From Acidimicrobiaceae bacterium (GTDB lineage Bacteria; Actinomycetota; Acidimicrobiia; Acidimicrobiales; Ilumatobacteraceae): a stretch of DNA of 51,008 nt. The stretch lies in assembly GCA_031413415.1 (NCBI GenBank), contig JANOET010000037.1, forward strand, positions 1 to 51,008, read 5' to 3'. Shown here piece after piece: positions 2,920-40,134 of the stretch. The notes beneath the pieces are model-generated. The model did not search any database and was not told the DNA's origin. It was given only the letters and a program-made list of their open reading frames with translations. Both the position numbers and the translations under genes were made by a program. Numbering within the stretch: position 1 is the stretch's first letter; every line of letters begins with the position of its first letter.

Positions 2920-3960
2920 TCAGGCGGTGGGGCGGGCCGACCCGTGTCGCACCATCGCCGTGAGCCGCGACATCGCCGCCGCGTTGCCGAGCACCACCAT
3001 CACGTCGCCGGCGCGGAGCGGACCATCTGCTTCGTGCCAACGACGGACCTCGTCGCCGTGCCGTAGGCCGAGGATGTGTACGCCCGGGGCCGACTGCATG
3101 AGCGAGCGCAGATCGATGGCCTCGGCCGCCGAGTCGGCACCCACTTCCATCTCCTCGAGGCGCATGTCGGTGCCGGGGATTGCCAGCACGCCGAGGACCT
3201 CGGCGTCGAGGGCGGTCGCCGCCATGCTCGCGCCGACGCTCTCGTACACCGGCACGACGTGCGACGCGCCGGCGCGCATCAGACGATCGCTCCAGTTCGC
3301 GTCGCTGACCCGGGCGACGATCCGCAGTTCCGGCGCGAGAGAACGCGCCGTCAGCGCGACGACTGCATTCGACGGATCGTCGAGGGTGGTGATCAACGCC
3401 GCAGCGCGTTCCACCCCTGCGGCGCGCAACACCATGACGTCGCGGGCGTCGCCCTGCAGGAAGGCTGCGCCGACGGCGTCGACGGCGTCGACGATGTCGT
3501 CGTTCGAATCGTCGATCAGCACGAAGCGGTCGTTGCGCAACGCCGCGTCGGCCGACGCGCGGCCGACGCGGCCGAAGCCGACGATGACCACGTGGTCGTG
3601 CAGGTGTTGACGCATCTTCGATCTCCTTCTCTCGCGCAGCGCGGCCGAGACGTCGCCCGAGACGAACAGGGCGGTCAGTGACGCAGCTGAGTAGACGAAC
3701 ACACCGAACCCGGCCAGGATGACGCCCATGGTCCAGTAGCGACCAGCGGTCGTGAGTGGACGGACCTCTCCGTACCCGATCTGGCCCATCGTGATCATCG
3801 ACATGTACACCGCGTCGAGCCAACTCCAGCCTTCGATCGCAACGTACCCTGCCGACGCGATCGCCATGGTGGCCGCGGCAGCAATGAGCGGACCACGCAG
3901 GCGCCGCAGGACGAGAGCACGCGCGTGCGGATGGTCGGCCGACCCGGGGATGGCCCTCAT
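2920..3960 (-). CDS. 2-TM potassium channel with C-terminal RCK/TrkA domains (MthK/Kch-like)
   Basis: This is the C-terminal 346 codons of the 694-aa track ORF. Pore segment is SMITMGQIGYGEV flanked by two hydrophobic helices. VVIVGFGRVGR Rossmann (TrkA-N) and a TrkA-C-like tail follow. The upstream part of the track ORF is Arg/Gly-rich junk. Start ATG 3960 chosen; start is uncertain. Confidence 0.8.
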   Translation of the reverse strand: MRAIPGSADHPHARALVLRRLRGPLIAAAATMAIASAGYVAIEGWSWLDAVYMSMITMGQIGYGEVRPLTTAGRYWTMGVILAGFGVFVYSAASLTALFVSGDVSAALRERRRSKMRQHLHDHVVIVGFGRVGRASADAALRNDRFVLIDDSNDDIVDAVDAVGAAFLQGDARDVMVLRAAGVERAAALITTLDDPSNAVVALTARSLAPELRIVARVSDANWSDRLMRAGASHVVPVYESVGASMAATALDAEVLGVLAIPGTDMRLEEMEVGADSAAEAIDLRSLMQSAPGVHILGLRHGDEVRRWHEADGPLRAGDVMVVLGNAAAMSRLTAMVRHGSARPTA

Positions 3961-4011
3961 GCGCTCAGTCTGTCGTGGCCGCACACCTCGGCACAGAGTA
4001 CGTTGGCCCTT

Positions 4012-5001
4012 GTGTCCAGGGCCGTTCGCGTCGACCTCCGCGACGCCCACGTGGCTTCGTTGCGCCATGTCGTGGCGCCGGGGGCGAGGTACTCGGGCCA
4101 CCGTCGGCGCCAGATCGCCCAGGTGGCCATCGACGCAGCGCTGTCCTCGTCGCCGTCGCCGCCCTGGGTTCGACCCTACGGCGATCCGGCTCTGGACCTG
4201 GGGTACCGATTGGGCCGGCACGCAGGGACCATCGGAGAGCAGTGGTACGAGCAACTGGCGACCGATGGGTTCCATCCGCTCGAGTGGGTGGAGGTCGTGG
4301 GCGTGGTGGTCGCCGCGTTGCCGCCGGTCCTGTTCGCACGGGCCATCGGCGACCCGATTCCCGAACTGCCGCCTGCGGTCGACGGGCAGCCGCACGGTCG
4401 CGAAGCCACCGAGTTGGCTCCAGCCGCGTACAACTTCGTGCCCGTCGCGGCACCGGCCGATCGAGTCGCGTCCGTCGTGCAAGCCCTCAGTGCGCTCCCC
4501 GACGAATGGGCCAACCTCTGGCAGCTCGCGCAGGCGCAGTACATGAGCGACCGCGACATGGCCGATCCATTGTGGAACCGCGGCACGCTCACCCGACCGC
4601 AGATGGAGTTGGTGGCAGGGCGGCTGTCGTTGCTCCGCGAGTGCTTCTTTTGAACGACCTCTCATGCCGGCATGCTCAGTTGGAGCAGCCACGAGGACGG
4701 CACTCCTGCCGACATCGACGCGCTCGCGTCGGGGCGGGGTGACGGCGGCCTGCCGCACGGGGCCGGCCTGCTGGCGTTCACCGACGCCATTGCGGGCTGG
4801 AACGACCGCGTGCTCGACACGGCACGCGAACGGCTCGTGGTCCAGGCCGGCGACGCGTTCATGGTCGACGCGGCCGCCGTTGCAGCGAACTTCGAGATGA
4901 TGACGCGCGTCGCCGACGGCACGGGTGCCCGACACTCCGCCGACACGATCGAGTCGCGTCGCGCCGTCGCGACCCGACTGGGCATGGTCGAACGGCCCTG
5001 A
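4012..5001 (+). CDS. AhpD/carboxymuconolactone-decarboxylase (CMD) family protein, two track ORFs joined through in-frame TGA 4651-4653 (candidate selenocysteine; alternative: nonsense pseudogene)
   Basis: Track ORFs ending at 4653 and starting at 4672 share one frame. Read-through gives E(4606)-X11-C(4642)-X2-TGA-X3-H(4663), the AhpD-type motif. Downstream codons keep strong GC3 bias and a CMD-like C-terminal half. Start is uncertain: GTG 4012 lies 7 nt after a TACGTT -10-like hexamer (leaderless-type); GTG 4051 and 4072 are alternatives. Confidence 0.55.
4669..4690 (+). other. candidate bacterial SECIS-like hairpin downstream of TGA 4651-4653
   Basis: GGC(4669-71)/GCC(4688-90), bulged A4672, UGCUC(4673-77)/GAGCA(4683-87), apical loop AGUUG. 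The hairpin base lies 15 nt after the UGA. Confidence 0.3.
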
Positions 5002-5055
5002 CACCGATCACCGGCGTGTCGTACGGTCGAGTCGAGTGATCTCGAGGAGGCTCGA

Positions 5056-7977
5056 ATGCGCAGCTGGTGGCGGTACGTCGGAACGTGGTTGAGCCGACAC
5101 TCGGCGCTGGTGCTGGTCGGCGTCCTCGCATTGACGGCAGTGTTCTCGATCGGCCTCGGTCGGCTCGACTTCGCAACCGGTCAGGACAGCTACATCGACC
5201 CGAACTCGCAGGTCGCGAAGGACAACCGGGCGTACCAGGAACTGTTCGGTGGCGAGAGCATGGTGGTGCTGTTCACGGTCGAGGAGGGCAAGAACCTCGT
5301 CGACCTGTTCACCTCGGAGAACATCGATCAGATCGAGCAGGTCGAGGCCACGTTGTCCGACGACCCGTCGATCGTCTCGGTCGTGTCACCCGTGAAGTTG
5401 CTGCAGTGGACGAACGACCTCATCGCCGAGGGCACGGCCAGCGAGATCATCGCCAGGACCATCGAGCGAGACCCCAGCGACCAGTCCAAGACGTTGCGGC
5501 AGGCCGATGCGACGCTCACCACGCTGCGGCTCGGGGCCGCGGGCGAACAGTCCCTCGACAACCCCGAGTGGGTGAAGTTCCTCCTCTTCGACAACACCGG
5601 ATTCCGAATCGATTCGGACGCCCAACTCGTTGCGCCCGCCGACGACGAGTTGCAGGTTCGCCGGGCGCTGCGAGCGTTCATGCCCGATCCTCGGCACGCA
5701 GTGATGGCCGCAGTGCTCGTCGGCAACGCCCCGCTCGATGCGCTCGCTGAGGGCAGCGACGCCGTCGCCGCCGCATACGCGGGCCGCACGTTCGACAACG
5801 CCGACGTCGTGATCACCGGCACGCCGACCTTCCTGACCGACATCAACGACTATCTGCAGGGGGGCATGCTCACCCTGGGCGCCATCGCGGTGCTCGTGAT
5901 GGTCGTGATCCTGATCGTGGCGTTCCGGGTTCGGTGGCGACTGCTGCCGATGGTGGGCATGGTCGTCGGGGTGCTCTGGGGCTTCGGAGTGTTCGGCTTC
6001 ACCGGCACGAAGTTGTCGCTCGTCACGATCGCCGGCCTCCCGATCCTCATCGGACTGGGGATCGAGTTCTCGATCCAGGTCCACAACCGCATCGAGGAGG
6101 AGCGCACCATCGAACGTGTCGCCGACCCGTACGGGCAGACGCTGTCCTACATGGGACCGCCTCTGTTGGCCGCGACGGTCGCCGCGGTCATCGCGTTCAT
6201 GACCGTCAAGATCTCGAAGGTTCCCATGGTGCAGGACTTCGGCGTGCTGCTCTCGATCGGCATCGTCGCCCTGTTGGTGGCGGGCATCGTGGTGCCGCTC
6301 GCAGTCATCGGGTGGCGGGAGCGTCGCAAGCCCACCAGCGAGGCACCGAAGCCGAGCTGGGTTGAAGCGACCGTTCGTCGCCTCGGAAGCCTGCCGCGGA
6401 CCGCCGTGCTGCCGCTCGTGATCGTCGCCATCGCAGTTCCGGTGCTGGGGCTGCTGCTGGAGGGCGGGACGAAGATCGAGAGCGACCCGATCAACTGGGC
6501 GAACCAGGAGAGCGTGGCCATCCAGAACGCGCGCACGTTGGAGGATGCGACCGGCTTCTCGAGCACGCTCGGCGTGTTCGTGCAAGCGGATCCGCAGGTT
6601 GCCGAGAACGGTGTGTTCACCGACCAGATGGGTGCGTTCCAGATGTCGCTCGTGGAGCGGCAGCTGAGCGCGAACGACGAACTCGCCCAGGCGTCGAGTT
6701 TGGCCACCACGGTCGGATGGTTGAACGAGGTGCCGGGAGCGACCACCCTGGCGCCGACCGGCCTCGACATGCTCCAGGCCTACAACGCTGCACCGGTGTC
6801 GCTGCAGTCGCTGCTCGTCGCCAACAACGGGAATGCGGCGCAAGTGCTCTTCCAGGTGGGCCCCTCGTCGCTCGACGAGCGCGCCGTGGTGCTCGACCAC
6901 GTCGAACAGGCCATCGCCGCGCCGGTCGACGACGCGCTGCTCCCGAAGGGGGCGACCGCCACCACCGGTGGCCTCGCGGTCGTCGGTGTCGGTCTGCTCC
7001 AGAACATCACCGCCAATCGTGCCGAGCTGACGATCGTTGCCTTGCTGCTCGTCGGCGCATTCGTGATTCTGCGGTACCGCGACCTGGCCCGCGGGCTGAT
7101 CACGATGATCCCGGTGCTGCTCGCAGTCGGCATGTCCGCGGTGCTCGTACGGGTGCTGAACATCACGCTCAGCCCGCTCACCACCGTCGGCGGTCCGCTC
7201 GTGGTCGCCACGTGTGCCGAGTTCTCGGTGCTGCTCGTCGACCGCTACGCGGAACAGCGGGCTCGCGGGTTCGACCCCGAGACGAGCAACCGCACTGCGG
7301 CCGAGCGCACCGGACGGGCGTTCTTCACATCGGCGCTGACGACGCTGGGTGGCTTCGCCGTGCTGATGTTCAGCAGCCTTCCGCTGCTGGCCGACTTCGG
7401 CATGGTCGTGACGATCAACATCGCCGTCGCCCTGCTCGCCGCGCTCGTCGTCGTGCCGCCGTTGGTGAAGGAGGCCGACCGTCTTCGGCTGCTGGTGATG
7501 GGTCCGCGTCATCGGGCGGCGAACGCGGGTCGTCGCACGGTGGCGATGGGGCTGGCGTCGTTCCTGCTCGCGGTCGGTGGCATCGTGCTCGTCACGCGTG
7601 CCGTCGACGACACGAGCGCCGCAGCGTCAGAACCCCAGCGCACGGAGACGGCGGAGGCGCCTGCGACCATCCCGCCGCCCACCACCGTGGCGCCCACCAC
7701 GTCGTTGGCTCCCGACTCGACGTTGCCGGCAGGTCCTGCCGAGCGTCCGTCGGGCCTGGTCGCCGGGGTGTTCTACGACAGCCTCACCGCGGCGGGTGTC
7801 GACGCCGGTGTCGCTCGCTGCGCCGCCGACGACCTGATCGCCACCACGTCCGAGGCCGACCTGTTGGCGTTGGGCATCGCCGCCGCGCCGCGCCCCGCGG
7901 AGGTCGATGCGCTGCTCGCCGCAGCGGCCCTGCGCTGCGGAGTGACCCAGGAACAACTCGACGCTGCCGCAGGCTGA
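5056..7977 (+). CDS. MMPL/RND-superfamily membrane transporter with extra C-terminal TM + Ala-rich domain
   Basis: 973-aa ORF with N-terminal TM, a large loop, two blocks of multiple hydrophobic helices (RND/MMPL architecture) and a GAGGAGG SD 7 nt upstream. The last ~160 aa are an additional anchored domain. Confidence 0.85.
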   Translation: MRSWWRYVGTWLSRHSALVLVGVLALTAVFSIGLGRLDFATGQDSYIDPNSQVAKDNRAYQELFGGESMVVLFTVEEGKNLVDLFTSENIDQIEQVEATLSDDPSIVSVVSPVKLLQWTNDLIAEGTASEIIARTIERDPSDQSKTLRQADATLTTLRLGAAGEQSLDNPEWVKFLLFDNTGFRIDSDAQLVAPADDELQVRRALRAFMPDPRHAVMAAVLVGNAPLDALAEGSDAVAAAYAGRTFDNADVVITGTPTFLTDINDYLQGGMLTLGAIAVLVMVVILIVAFRVRWRLLPMVGMVVGVLWGFGVFGFTGTKLSLVTIAGLPILIGLGIEFSIQVHNRIEEERTIERVADPYGQTLSYMGPPLLAATVAAVIAFMTVKISKVPMVQDFGVLLSIGIVALLVAGIVVPLAVIGWRERRKPTSEAPKPSWVEATVRRLGSLPRTAVLPLVIVAIAVPVLGLLLEGGTKIESDPINWANQESVAIQNARTLEDATGFSSTLGVFVQADPQVAENGVFTDQMGAFQMSLVERQLSANDELAQASSLATTVGWLNEVPGATTLAPTGLDMLQAYNAAPVSLQSLLVANNGNAAQVLFQVGPSSLDERAVVLDHVEQAIAAPVDDALLPKGATATTGGLAVVGVGLLQNITANRAELTIVALLLVGAFVILRYRDLARGLITMIPVLLAVGMSAVLVRVLNITLSPLTTVGGPLVVATCAEFSVLLVDRYAEQRARGFDPETSNRTAAERTGRAFFTSALTTLGGFAVLMFSSLPLLADFGMVVTINIAVALLAALVVVPPLVKEADRLRLLVMGPRHRAANAGRRTVAMGLASFLLAVGGIVLVTRAVDDTSAAASEPQRTETAEAPATIPPPTTVAPTTSLAPDSTLPAGPAERPSGLVAGVFYDSLTAAGVDAGVARCAADDLIATTSEADLLALGIAAAPRPAEVDALLAAAALRCGVTQEQLDAAAG

Positions 7978-26605: not shown

Positions 26606-28342
26606 TCAGGGGTCGTAGCGGGCGACGTGTTCGCCAACCGTGGTGCCGTTGATCACGCTGAAGATCACGCGTTGCGCCTCGCGGCCCATCTCGCCCATGT
26701 CGCCGCCGGGAAGCCCTTCCACCCAGTCGAGGAAGTCCCTGATGAACAGGGTGCCCGGCAGTTCTTCCTCGAACGCGCGCAGCTCGGGCGGGTCGGGCGT
26801 GGCGTAGGTGGTGAGTCCCTGTGCGACCCACTTCTGCTGGAGAATGTCGGCGAGGTTCACGGCGGCCATGGTGATGGCCAGGTCGGCGCCGCGCAGCTCA
26901 TTGGCGAACGTCGCGTCGGGATCCGGTTCACCTCGCTGTGACACGTACATGATGCCCAACGTCAGGGCAGCTCCCAGAGCGACACCGGGAACCAAGGACG
27001 CGGCGAGCGAGCCGAGGTCGGTGATGGTGTTCCAGGCCGCTTTGCGCAGCTCGACGATGCGGACGCGTGCGTTCACGATGAGTCCTCCGATCAGGGCCAG
27101 GTAGCTGGTGTATTCGCTGACGGATCTGGCCGGTCCCGTCGCGAAGTGGCGCCGCGCGTTGGCGACGATCTGCTCGTGCTGCTCGACGAACCGTTGCAGC
27201 GCGTCGGGCGTCTGCAGGGCGCGATCGATGAGGTCGCGGCGCGCACCGGATGCGAGGTCCCAGTCGTCGTTCGCCGGTGCGAACTGTGGTGTCCACGGCA
27301 CGACGAGGTCCGCAGTGAACGTCCCCGCCGAGTGCTCCGGGTCACTGAGGTACCACTGCATCGCGGGGACGATGATCCTGCCGGCCGTGGTCGGGTCGAC
27401 CAGCGCCGGATCGGTGCCGCGCAGCAGCGCGGTCTCGATCAGCGTCGCGTCCGCCAGGTCGTGGGCGACCTGCACGAGGTGCGGTGCGATGGCGACGAGG
27501 AAGTGAGGCAGCGCCAATGGTTCGGCGAGCAACATCAGCAGCACGGTGTCGTTGGTGTTGGGTCCGGGGAGTTCGTCGAGGTCGTCGCGCGGGCGGGTGA
27601 TCACGCGTGCGGCGACGTCGCCCAGAAGATCGGGTGGCAGGACGAGGTCGCGCAGGAACAGCGCTGCGGCGTAGCGGGGCATGTCGTCGAGCGCGGCGAG
27701 CGCTGGTGAGCGGCCGCGGCCGGCGGTGACCGTGTGATGAGCCACCCGAGCGAACGCGTCGATGGTCGCGTCGAGCTGATCGATGCTCACGTGCAGCCGG
27801 GTGTCGATGCCGGCCATGCGGCGGGCGCGTGGCTCGGCCAACGCCTGGACCCACTCGGCCCACGCGTCGAACTCGGCGTCGAAGGTCGCAGCCAGAACGG
27901 GGTCGCGGCCGATGCGATCCAGCTCGGCCGTCAGCCAGGCCAGTCGTTCGGGGTCGTCGGCCAACTCTGCGGGTGGGATCTCGCGCAGGCGCCGGGCAAG
28001 TGCCCTCGCCTCGTCGACCGTGACCTGCTGGGGGTCGTCGGGCCGCGGGTCCACCATCACGGCCCAGCCCCGCTCGACCGCCATGAATCGGGCGAGTGAG
28101 TTCTGCACGGCCGACAGGTCGTCGCGCTCGGCGATGGGTTCGCTCAACGGGTCGTTGCGGAGGATGCGCTGGACCAACGGCAAGAGGCCTTCGTGGACGC
28201 GCAGCCGGACCTGGCGGATCGTTCGCATCGCGTCGACCGCGTCGGGGTCGTCGCTGTGCAGGCGGTGAAGCTGGTCGAGGGCGAGTCGGGCGCGGTGCTC
28301 GAGCATCGTCAGCCGCTCCGGGTCGTAGGCCAGGAAGGTCAT
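26606..28342 (-). CDS. hypothetical 578-aa protein; long helical N-terminal region, one predicted TM near residue ~450, ~110-aa C-terminal domain
   Basis: Clean ORF with gene-like GC3 and composition; the ATG overlaps the upstream ORF stop (ATGA). I recognised no catalytic or family motif (no HExxH, P-loop or GxSxG). Hydrophobic stretch LGSLAASLVPGVALGAALTLGIMYV. Confidence 0.7.
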   Translation of the reverse strand: MTFLAYDPERLTMLEHRARLALDQLHRLHSDDPDAVDAMRTIRQVRLRVHEGLLPLVQRILRNDPLSEPIAERDDLSAVQNSLARFMAVERGWAVMVDPRPDDPQQVTVDEARALARRLREIPPAELADDPERLAWLTAELDRIGRDPVLAATFDAEFDAWAEWVQALAEPRARRMAGIDTRLHVSIDQLDATIDAFARVAHHTVTAGRGRSPALAALDDMPRYAAALFLRDLVLPPDLLGDVAARVITRPRDDLDELPGPNTNDTVLLMLLAEPLALPHFLVAIAPHLVQVAHDLADATLIETALLRGTDPALVDPTTAGRIIVPAMQWYLSDPEHSAGTFTADLVVPWTPQFAPANDDWDLASGARRDLIDRALQTPDALQRFVEQHEQIVANARRHFATGPARSVSEYTSYLALIGGLIVNARVRIVELRKAAWNTITDLGSLAASLVPGVALGAALTLGIMYVSQRGEPDPDATFANELRGADLAITMAAVNLADILQQKWVAQGLTTYATPDPPELRAFEEELPGTLFIRDFLDWVEGLPGGDMGEMGREAQRVIFSVINGTTVGEHVARYDP

Positions 28343-38103: not shown

Positions 38104-40134
38104 ATGCGCGACCCCCGCTACGACGTGCTCTTCGAGCCGGTTCCGATCGGCCCGAAGGTGGCTCGAAACCGCTTCTTCCAGGTGCCCCACTGCAACGGCA
38201 TGGGCCATCGTCACCCCACCTCGTTGGCCGCGATGCGCGGGGCCAAGGCGGAAGGCGGCTGGGCGGTGGTCTGCACCGAGGAGGTCGAGATCCATCACAC
38301 GAGCGCGCTCGACGGCTCGGTGGAGGGACGGCTGTGGGACGACGCCGACGTGCCTGCGCACCGCCGCATCGTCGACGAGATCCACCGGTACGGCTCGCTC
38401 GCAGGAATCGAACTGGCGCACAGCGGGCTCAATGCAACGGCCACCTATCCGCGGGTGGCCGCGCTCGGTCCGTCGGCTCGGCCGCTCACGTCGGGTGTGC
38501 CCGCGCAGGGTCGAGCGATGTCGCTGGACGACATCGCTCAGCTGCGTGAGTGGCATCGTGCGGCCGTGCGTCGTTCGCTCGAGGCCGGCTACGACCTCGT
38601 GTACGTCTATGCGGCACACGGCCTGACCATCTTCCAGCAGTTCCTCAGTCGGCGGTACAACGACCGCACCGACGACTACGGCGGCTCGCTCGAGCATCGA
38701 GCGAGGCTCTTGCGCGAGGTCATCGAGGACACGCTCGAGTTGTGTGCCGGGCGCGCCGCGGTCGCGGTTCGACTGTGTGTCGACGAACTCATCGGCGACG
38801 ACGGCATCCAGCGCGCCGAGATCGACGAGCTGTTCGGCATGATCGGTGAGCTGCCCGACCTGTGGGACCTGATGGTGGGCGAGTGGGACTTCGACTCCAG
38901 CACCTCACGGTTCGAGCAGGAGGGCTACATCGAGCCGTGGCTCACCGGTTTGAAGGCCCTCACCACCAAGCCCGTCGTCGTGATCGGTCGGTTCACGTCG
39001 CCCGACACGATGGTGCGACTGGTTCGCAGCGGCATCACCGACTTCATCGGAGCGGCGCGCCCGTCCATCGCCGACCCCTTCCTTCCGGTGAAGATCGAGC
39101 AAGGCCGGCCGGAGGACATCCGCGAATGCATCGGATGCAACATCTGTGTCGCTGCCGACTGGATGGTCGTGCCCATTCGGTGCACACAGAACACTGCGAT
39201 GGGTGAGGAGTGGCGGCGCGGCTGGCACGCCGAGCGCATCCGGGAGCGCGAGAGCGAGTCGAAGGTGCTCGTCGTCGGTGGTGGGCCGGCCGGTCTCGAG
39301 GCCGCCCTGTGGCTCGGGCGCCGCGGGTACGAAGTGGTGCTCACCGAAGCGTCACGCCAACTGGGCGGGCGAGTCGCGCGCGAAGCACGATTGCCCGGCC
39401 TGGCCGAATGGGGGCGCGTCGCCGACCACCGGATCGGCCAGCTCGCCCGCCTGGACCACGCGCTGGTCACCCTCGAGAGCCCCATGACGGCCGCCGAGAT
39501 CGTCACCTACGACTTCACCCATGTGGCCGTGGCCACCGGTGCCCGTTGGCGCGACGACGGCATCGGCATCTGGCACCACCGGCCGGTGTTCACCGACGCC
39601 TTCCCGGTCGACGCGCTCCTCGCCGGTCGGCGACCCGAGGGCAAACGGGTGACGCTGTTCGACGACGACCACTACTACCTCGGCGGGGTGCTGGCCGAGA
39701 TGCTGGCTCGCGCCGGTCACGACGTCACGCTGGTCACGCCGGAGTCGAAGGTGTCCAGCTGGACCGTCAACACCTTGGAGCAGGCGCGCATCCATCGTCG
39801 TCTCGTCGAGGCCGGCGTGGTGCTGCACCTGAACGCCGCGGTGCTCGCGCACGCGGATGGTGCTGCCCTGGTGGCCGACTCCTACACGGGGCGCGAACAG
39901 TCGATCGCCAGCGATGCACTGGTCAGCGTCACGGCGCGCGTGCCGAACGACGGCCTCGTGGGCGAGCTCCGCGCCCTCGGGTTCGCGAACGTGCAGGCCA
40001 TCGGTGACGCCTGGAATCCGGGCATCATCGCCGACGCCACGTTCGACGGACGCCGATACGCGGAGGACTTCGACGGGCCGGTGGTCGACCCCGGTGCAAC
40101 CCCGTTCCTGCGTGAGGTTGTGAGGCTTGCCTGA
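38104..40134 (+). CDS. trimethylamine/dimethylamine-dehydrogenase-family flavoprotein (OYE-like FMN domain + 4Fe-4S + ADP-binding domains)
   Basis: 676 aa: RDPRYDVLFEPVPIGPKVARNRFFQVPHCNGMG (Cys at the position of the FMN-linking Cys of TMADH), YNDRTDDYGGSLE, CIGCNICVA...CTQN Fe-S motif, VVGGGPAGLEAA. Substrate is unknown. Confidence 0.8.
   Translation: MRDPRYDVLFEPVPIGPKVARNRFFQVPHCNGMGHRHPTSLAAMRGAKAEGGWAVVCTEEVEIHHTSALDGSVEGRLWDDADVPAHRRIVDEIHRYGSLAGIELAHSGLNATATYPRVAALGPSARPLTSGVPAQGRAMSLDDIAQLREWHRAAVRRSLEAGYDLVYVYAAHGLTIFQQFLSRRYNDRTDDYGGSLEHRARLLREVIEDTLELCAGRAAVAVRLCVDELIGDDGIQRAEIDELFGMIGELPDLWDLMVGEWDFDSSTSRFEQEGYIEPWLTGLKALTTKPVVVIGRFTSPDTMVRLVRSGITDFIGAARPSIADPFLPVKIEQGRPEDIRECIGCNICVAADWMVVPIRCTQNTAMGEEWRRGWHAERIRERESESKVLVVGGGPAGLEAALWLGRRGYEVVLTEASRQLGGRVAREARLPGLAEWGRVADHRIGQLARLDHALVTLESPMTAAEIVTYDFTHVAVATGARWRDDGIGIWHHRPVFTDAFPVDALLAGRRPEGKRVTLFDDDHYYLGGVLAEMLARAGHDVTLVTPESKVSSWTVNTLEQARIHRRLVEAGVVLHLNAAVLAHADGAALVADSYTGREQSIASDALVSVTARVPNDGLVGELRALGFANVQAIGDAWNPGIIADATFDGRRYAEDFDGPVVDPGATPFLREVVRLA

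Follow-up and report, generated by a model that had tools for sequence, protein, structure and literature searches.

An in-frame TGA codon conserved in Acidimicrobiia very likely encodes the selenocysteine of an AhpD-related protein

The stretch of DNA analysed here (the window, 51,008 nucleotides of an Acidimicrobiaceae contig) contains two open reading frames (ORFs), 3925..4653 and 4672..5001, that share one frame and are separated only by the TGA at 4651-4653 and six sense codons. Read through, they give ...RPQM-E-LVAGRLSLLRE-C-FF-*-TTS-H-AGMLSW..., which carries the motif E-x11-C-x2-TGA-x3-H with Glu at 4606-4608, Cys at 4642-4644, the TGA at 4651-4653 and His at 4663-4665. The original prediction, which was made from the letters of the window, held that this TGA stands at the second cysteine of an AhpD/CMD redox motif and encodes selenocysteine (Sec). 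Its account of the shared frame and the intervening codons was exact when checked against the sequence, the motif was confirmed at the positions it gave, and its estimate that about 100 of the 116 downstream codons end in G or C compares well with the ~99 of 116 measured in 4654-5001 (GC3 0.85). The coding pattern GC1>GC2<GC3 is present on both sides of TGA 4651, with values by codon position of 0.75/0.51/0.84 for 4012-4650 and 0.72/0.56/0.85 for 4654-5001, in a contig with a G+C content of 68.5%. Standard annotation does split the gene, as had been anticipated; gene callers report N-terminal products of 213 aa. GTG 4012 is the most likely true start, in preference to 3925, because the NF041238 profile described below begins at residue 34 of the 3925 ORF and the gene callers' products are 213 aa long (P0001). 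We believe that 4012..5001 on the forward strand is, with high probability, one gene for a 329-residue selenoprotein of the NCBIfam family NF041238, in which the UGA is decoded as Sec. The features of the locus are as follows.

4012..5001, + strand: predicted complete selenoprotein gene of 329 residues, with GTG start at 4012, Sec codon at 4651-4653 and true stop TGA at 4999-5001; matches NF041238.
4012..4530, + strand: N-terminal family-specific helical region, residues 1 to ~173, for which neither a Pfam match nor a PDB sequence match was found.
4531..4947, + strand: AhpD-like / CMD-fold redox domain, residues ~174-312, from family-profile matches to solved AhpD-like structures.
4606..4608, + strand: Glu199, putative proton relay residue equivalent to Glu118 of Mycobacterium tuberculosis AhpD (MtAhpD); present in 78/78 sequences and aligned with the corresponding Glu in solved AhpD-like proteins.
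4642..4644, + strand: Cys211, first residue of the predicted CxxU centre, equivalent to Cys130 of MtAhpD; present in 78/78 sequences (TGC 66, TGT 12) and aligned to the first Cys of CxxC.
4651..4653, + strand: predicted Sec214 codon TGA, in the place of the second CxxC cysteine (Cys133 of MtAhpD); TGA in 82/82 loci, Cys or Ser in rare homologues, aligned to the second Cys.
4663..4665, + strand: His218, putative proton relay residue matching His137 of MtAhpD; encoded after the TGA but ahead of the first in-frame ATG, and present in 78/78 sequences.
4669..4690, + strand: predicted selenocysteine insertion sequence (SECIS) hairpin, from the minimum free energy fold, pairing and covariation across orthologues, and synonymous-site constraint.

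The joined protein, searched with the TGA read as Cys, matched NF041238 with 238 bits (E=1.8e-70), compared with a curated cutoff of 175. The match is near full-length, as residues 34-354 of the 3925 ORF align with profile positions 1-352 of 357. NF041238 is an equivalog, 'AhpD_rel_CFYUT', described as 'alkylhydroperoxidase-related (seleno)protein', and its name spells out the motif. The window motif C-F-F-[TGA]-T fits this signature (C-F-Y-U-T, with U from TGA) except that Tyr is replaced by Phe; CFF is the minority form, found in 19 of the 135 truncated clusters described below, compared with CFY in 107. Full-length architecture and a Sec in C-F-[YF]-U-T are common to the window protein and the family. 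Because its score lies above the cutoff, the gene can be assigned by sequence to a family that NCBI has already curated as a selenoprotein family. The joined protein also matched TIGR01926 (E=3.3e-7).

The redox domain could be placed on solved structures. A family profile built from 18 full-length sequences, in which U had been replaced by C, matched PDB entries over positions 174-312, the best being 6k40 AhpD (E=4.3e-11), 3c1l (1.9e-9) and 2prr (2.1e-8); further matches among solved AhpD-like 'peroxidase-related' proteins were 2pfx, 2oyo and PA0269/2o4d (E=4.7e-6). These matches provide significant profile similarity across the domain, by which we recognize an AhpD-like fold. The profile alignments place E-x11-C-x2-U-x3-H, residue for residue, on the E..C..C...H of the solved AhpD-like proteins. 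Thus, Sec replaces the second Cys, which is where the original prediction had put the TGA. Glu199, Cys211, Sec214 and His218 are present and invariant in the window family. The proton relay comprises Glu118, Cys130, His132, Cys133 and His137 in MtAhpD, and Glu36, Cys48, Tyr50, Cys51 and His55 in PA0269 of Pseudomonas aeruginosa (PMC3141380). Both proteins have the same E-x11-C-x2-C-x3-H spacing as the window protein, and the C-x-Y-C of PA0269, whose structure 2o4d is a direct profile match, parallels the C-F-Y-U of the family. The window protein differs from both in having Sec for the second Cys and Phe at the His132/Tyr50 position, in being about twice as long, in scoring below threshold for Pfam CMD and in having no adjacent ahpC or peroxiredoxin gene; an AhpD-like activity may be proposed for it by analogy.

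The N-terminal region, for its part, is predicted to be helical. An AlphaFold2 model of the 213-aa fragment contains five confident helices within residues 7-111, and a Foldseek search with the N-terminal fragment model returned nothing at E < 1. The matches that appeared were weak ones to Sestrin2 (probability <=0.47, E > 1). An origin of the region as a degenerate copy of the AhpD-like domain was considered and rejected, as hhalign gave it a probability of 0.25%. Two very large proteins, P0201 (3283 aa) and P0227 (1846 aa), matched the N-terminal region in 8 and 6 separate stretches, respectively, with E ~1e-11; these could reflect a repeated domain related to this region or a compositional artefact.

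The TGA is conserved among orthologues. A protein search over 5.8 billion proteins yielded 120 close homologues (65-82% identity), mostly from metagenome-assembled genomes (MAGs) of Ilumatobacteraceae or Acidimicrobiaceae. All were ~213 aa long with 64-65% query coverage, and 120/120 stop right after E-x11-C-x-x. At the DNA level we compared 82 sequences from Acidimicrobiia MAGs, made up of 80 species-level genomes, one locus from a contig look-up and the window itself. The tblastn matches continue through the TGA in 80 species. A TGA occupies the motif column in 82/82 loci, down to 32% identity, in the context C-x-[FY]-TGA-[TVL]-x-[SA]-H-x-x-M-L; TAG, TAA or a Cys codon was found there in none. 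The true terminators of the same orthologous genes are mixed, with TGA in 63, TAG in 11 and TAA in 3 of 77. Because the motif column always contains TGA while the true terminators vary, the pattern is far beyond chance. There were four apparent exceptions, which turned out to be upstream frameshifts in 'MFD' MAG assemblies that still have the TGA. Single frameshifts occur in the orthologous gene of L064, L067, L072 and L076 (upstream of the TGA) and of L075 (in the C-terminal part), all with 'MFD' isolate names, and in these assemblies the other frame still contains the complete TGA motif. The frameshifts are probably assembly indel errors, not decay.

To place these loci in a wider set, the N-terminal fragment was scanned against 1.84 billion cluster representatives (50% level), which gave 397 matches, and the best 150 clusters were examined. 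No fewer than 135 of these end immediately after E-x11-C-x-x (CFY 107, CFF 19). Two are full-length Cys forms, P0248 with CFYCT and P0246 with CFYCS; P0184 has Ser at the TGA column, and 12 are fragments. Thus, a classic Sec/Cys pair exists, of the kind the original prediction had named for AhpD-like proteins, and the family is overwhelmingly of the Sec form. The suggested check of whether Cys or TGA aligns at this column gave TGA at every locus and Cys in two of the best 150 clusters.

The comparisons show that the region downstream of the TGA is translated. Comparisons with the window gave dN/dS values of ~0.17-0.5 downstream of the TGA and 0.11-0.32 upstream, and median amino-acid identity was 0.50 downstream versus 0.45 upstream. 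These values point to purifying selection on the downstream half, instead of the decayed downstream halves in relatives that would have spoken against a selenoprotein. His218 is invariant in 78/78 sequences, although its codon varies synonymously (CAC 61, CAT 17), and most species have no start codon between the TGA and His218. As His218 is conserved as an amino acid, sits before the first ATG and mostly has no start codon between it and the TGA, ribosomes must read through the TGA. One subclade (L030, L033, L035, L037, L041, L048, L052 and others) has GTG (Val) directly after the TGA, where the window has ACG (Thr, 4654-4656); in principle, a downstream product might start at this GTG instead.

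The minimum free energy fold of the sequence after the TGA contains a hairpin, GGC-A-UGCUC-AGUUG-GAGCA-GCC, 15 nt past the TGA. Its lower stem pairs 4669-4671 with 4688-4690, its upper stem pairs 4673-4677 with 4683-4687, A4672 is bulged, and the 5-nt apical loop AGUUG lies at 4678-4682. The hairpin recurs in nearly all orthologues, and a divergent subclade has the loop CGUGC or CGGGC on the same stem. Pairing and covariation were scored in the 79 distinct sequences found in the 51-nt region. Here 89.2% of cells were paired, compared with 29-54% when the partners were slid by 1-3 columns. Both-sided changes occurred at three stem pairs (12 cells), the compensatory changes being in the lower stem, and the observed covariation score was reached by 0/500 shuffles. 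The loop G4679 is invariant in 79/79 sequences, as is the bulged A4672.

The most telling evidence came from synonymous variation. The gene has ~60 conserved columns of 4- or 6-fold-degenerate codons, at which codon entropy was 1.0-2.2 bits, and it was zero at three columns alone: Leu CTC 4675 (78/78), Ser AGT 4678 (72/72) and Ser AGC 4684 (77/77). AGT is an A/T-ending codon, rare in these genes, and the three invariant six-fold codons make up exactly the upper stem and loop. Because these codons have no synonymous change, unlike all other conserved 4- or 6-fold codons, the hairpin region is under constraint at the nucleotide level beyond protein coding.

According to the published description (PMC1088965), a bacterial SECIS is a stem-loop that directly follows the UGA and has a G in its small apical loop. 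The hairpin at 4669-4690 fits this description, and we regard it as the predicted SECIS of the gene. When 3800-5200 was scanned against Rfam with permissive E-values, only chance matches and no SECIS family came up; according to one preprint, bacterial SECIS elements are poorly represented in Rfam. One of the matches, to the archaeal C/D-box sR45 at 4893-4918 (+) inside the coding region, scored 24.2 bits against a gathering cutoff of 40 (E=0.0065) and is almost certainly due to chance. In Escherichia coli fdhF the SECIS is an intracoding stem-loop that closely follows the UGA; its stem has a bulged nucleotide, and its small apical loop contains G/U. The window hairpin resembles it in its position 3' of the UGA, its bulge and its small G/U loop, but differs in its unrelated sequence and shorter stem (5+2-3 bp), and its binding by SelB is a prediction.

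Relatives of the window organism use Sec. Ilumatobacter coccineus and I. nonamiensis are listed as SelD+, SelA+ and SelB+ (Peng et al., 2016; PMC5029168, Tables S1 and S2), with 15 and 10 known selenoproteins, respectively, compared with one in most Sec-using actinobacteria (PMC5029168). Several of our orthologous loci come from Ilumatobacter MAGs. Moreover, selA, selB, selC and selD have been reported in all Actinomarinales, another order of Acidimicrobiia (2026 preprint). A related Acidimicrobiaceae MAG contains a second candidate selenoprotein gene, at L040:4043-5950 (+), with a TGA at 4505 in the context ...SGMGC-TGA-GSCTPAV.... It matched NCBIfam NF041046, 'UGSC family (seleno)protein', with 41.8 bits (E=1e-10), below the cutoff of 125, and is apparently fused to a C-terminal region of ~440 residues. 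A hairpin, GCCCGC-CGUGAU-GCGGGC, with a G/U-containing loop, starts 11 nt past its UGA.

Taken as a whole, the conserved TGA, the purifying selection downstream of it, the hairpin, the rare Cys homologues and the NF041238 score above cutoff bear out the reading of this locus as a selenoprotein gene. Several observations weigh against it. ARAGORN found no tRNA-Sec in the window (51 kb) or in the flanks of related loci (1.38 Mb), and tblastn with E. coli queries found no SelA, SelB or SelD homologues in the same DNA; the machinery is therefore unlinked to the selenoprotein gene, and the Sec competence of the window organism is presumed from that of its relatives. Pfam CMD (PF02627) scored 14.3 bits against a gathering cutoff of 23, over residues 216-250 only. 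The third relay residue is Phe213 in the window protein, compared with Tyr in most members, His132 in MtAhpD and Tyr50 in PA0269. The single-sequence stability of the hairpin is weak (z = -1.07), which is why we used comparative evidence for it, and the upper stem never varies and so by itself provides no covariation evidence. Finally, we found no experimental data on any family member in the literature.

Three other explanations were weighed. The main alternative raised by the original prediction was a pseudogene, in which a recent TGC/TGT-to-TGA nonsense mutation has struck the catalytic Cys and the downstream half has not yet decayed. A single base change from TGC or TGT does give TGA, and gene callers do report two fragments. 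However, a one-off mutation is ruled out by the comparative data: the TGA is found at all 82 loci from ~80 species and in the truncated form of 135 of the best 150 clusters, the Cys forms are the rare exception, and the downstream half, with a dN/dS of 0.17-0.5, is as well conserved as the upstream half. Nor are the related loci assembly copies of one sequence, given the 79 distinct sequences in the 51-nt region alone. We therefore give a pseudogene a vanishingly small probability. It could also be that translation stops at TGA 4651 and a second chain starts at ATG 4672, or at the GTG after the TGA, with non-covalent assembly of the two chains; the conserved nucleotides at ~4672-4687 would then be a re-initiation signal. 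The invariance of ATG 4672, the GTG of the one subclade and the failure to find Sec machinery in the DNA searched would agree with such a split gene. Against it, the T-T-S-H-A-G between the TGA and the ATG is conserved as amino acids, and it includes the invariant His218, with its synonymous codon changes and mostly no start codon before it. A split would also deprive the motif, which is in perfect alignment with CxxC...H, of its second redox residue, it does not require that the stop always be TGA and never TAG or TAA, the Cys forms are single chains, and NCBI curates the family as a selenoprotein. We regard a split gene as very improbable.

The remaining explanation accepts read-through of the UGA and has it decoded as a standard amino acid, either Trp or Cys by a near-cognate tRNA or through reassignment of the codon, with the hairpin as a read-through stimulator. 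It would account for the missing Sec machinery in the window and the 1.38 Mb of flanks, and selenium incorporation at the UGA is itself predicted from sequence. On the other side, UGA is not reassigned, because TGA is the main true terminator of the same genes (63/77). The UGA stands where CxxC has its redox-active second Cys, and rare homologues do have Cys there, as in the classic Sec/Cys signature; in addition, the hairpin fits the description of a bacterial SECIS, and cultured relatives have SelA, SelB and SelD together with many selenoproteins. We think there is very little chance that a standard amino acid is inserted here. Decoding of the UGA as Sec is the explanation that we strongly favour.

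We propose a model for how the selenoprotein is made and how it may work. The mRNA hairpin at 4669-4690 would recruit SelB carrying Sec-tRNA(Sec), so that the ribosome inserts selenocysteine at UGA 4651-4653 and does not terminate there. The product would consist of the N-terminal helical region and the C-terminal AhpD-like (CMD-fold) domain, with a redox centre, Cys211-Phe-Phe-Sec214, flanked by Glu199 and His218. In MtAhpD the attacking nucleophile is the second Cys, Cys133, as known from mutagenesis. On the model of AhpD, the selenolate of Sec214 may be the attacking nucleophile, Cys211 may resolve the adduct as a selenenylsulfide, and Glu and His may form the proton relay. The sequence comparisons themselves show that the TGA is conserved, that the downstream half is translated, that the hairpin is constrained as RNA, and that the protein belongs to the family and aligns with its motif; SelB/SECIS decoding, the catalytic roles of these residues and a peroxidase-like chemistry are what we infer.

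An AhpD-related selenoprotein gene of this kind is already known, both from its own NCBIfam equivalog and from published CxxU families. CxxU 'AhpD-like protein' (COG2128) and 'CMD domain-containing' (PF02627) selenoproteins were described by Zhang and Gladyshev (2005, 2008; PMC1088965; PMC2398784), and CxxU AhpD-like and CMD selenoprotein families are listed in current databases. The suggestion that a Sec-using actinobacterium of this type would be noteworthy does not hold, as CxxU AhpD-like proteins have been known since 2005 (PMC1088965, PMC2398784), the family has its own NCBIfam model, and Ilumatobacter is listed as Sec-using (PMC5029168). Like the Zhang-Gladyshev families, the window protein has a CxxU centre with Sec second and a fold related to AhpD/CMD, and its UGA is directly followed by a predicted SECIS with a loop G. 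It differs in its extra N-terminal ~170 residues and in its Cys homologues, which are many in those families (902 Cys versus 299 Sec homologues for AhpD-like 1; PMC1088965, PMC2398784) and very rare here (2 of the best 150 clusters). Two modest observations remain, namely the extreme Sec:Cys ratio (135:2) and an N-terminal region without an assigned fold.

Such a ratio is unusual, since Cys members far outnumber Sec members in most selenoprotein families. It raises the tentative and rather doubtful idea of an essentially obligate-Sec family, which combines an AhpD-like CxxU centre with the N-terminal ~170 residues and counts 135 TGA-truncated versus 2 Cys members among the best 150 clusters. 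If this were true, it would suggest that aerobic Acidimicrobiia have a substrate or chemistry, other than classical AhpC recycling, in which Cys can replace Sec only poorly. For annotation, the two fragments and the many public 213-aa 'hypothetical proteins' should be merged into one selenoprotein gene, which is the purpose of NF041238. For biology, a known family of redox selenoproteins that is still uncharacterised is extended by one member, from an uncultured freshwater or soil bacterium of the Acidimicrobiia, close to Ilumatobacteraceae. The NF041238 family gains a well-supported SECIS consensus, and the knowledge of selenocysteine use in Actinomycetota is unchanged.

In the window, the gene is flanked by a divergent TrkA-type K+ channel gene on the minus strand (~2920-3951) and by an MMPL transporter gene (5056-7977). 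This TrkA/MMPL arrangement, with an upstream MetY-like gene, is limited to the closest subclade. A family-wide operon with MMPL, TrkA or MetY neighbours was considered and rejected, as these are kept in only 12-18 of 78 loci, and no neighbour conserved across the family was found among the 78. In the syntenic loci L001-L003, none of the genes called up to 10 kb away in either direction has a peroxiredoxin domain, and hence no pairing with AhpC was seen. Because no family-wide neighbour and no nearby peroxiredoxin were found, the gene looks stand-alone, and its substrate cannot be deduced from context.

An antisense ORF of 694 aa (2920-5004, minus strand) spans the whole selenoprotein gene. Only about 2920-3951 of it looks real (the TrkA_N/Ion_trans_2 K+ channel, as in L001); the remainder is a high-GC shadow ORF that recurs as a spurious 'family' in 55 loci. 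Elsewhere in the window, same-frame TGAs with coding signal on both sides occur at 40132 (+), with 678 + 215 codons, and at 26606 (-), with 605 + 70 codons. Together with 4999, these are the sole other sites of this kind in the window, and all three were rejected as further Sec codons, since each resembles an ordinary gene end after which a neighbouring gene begins in the same frame. The sites at 40132 and 26606 have no redox motif and look like adjacent genes that share a frame by chance.

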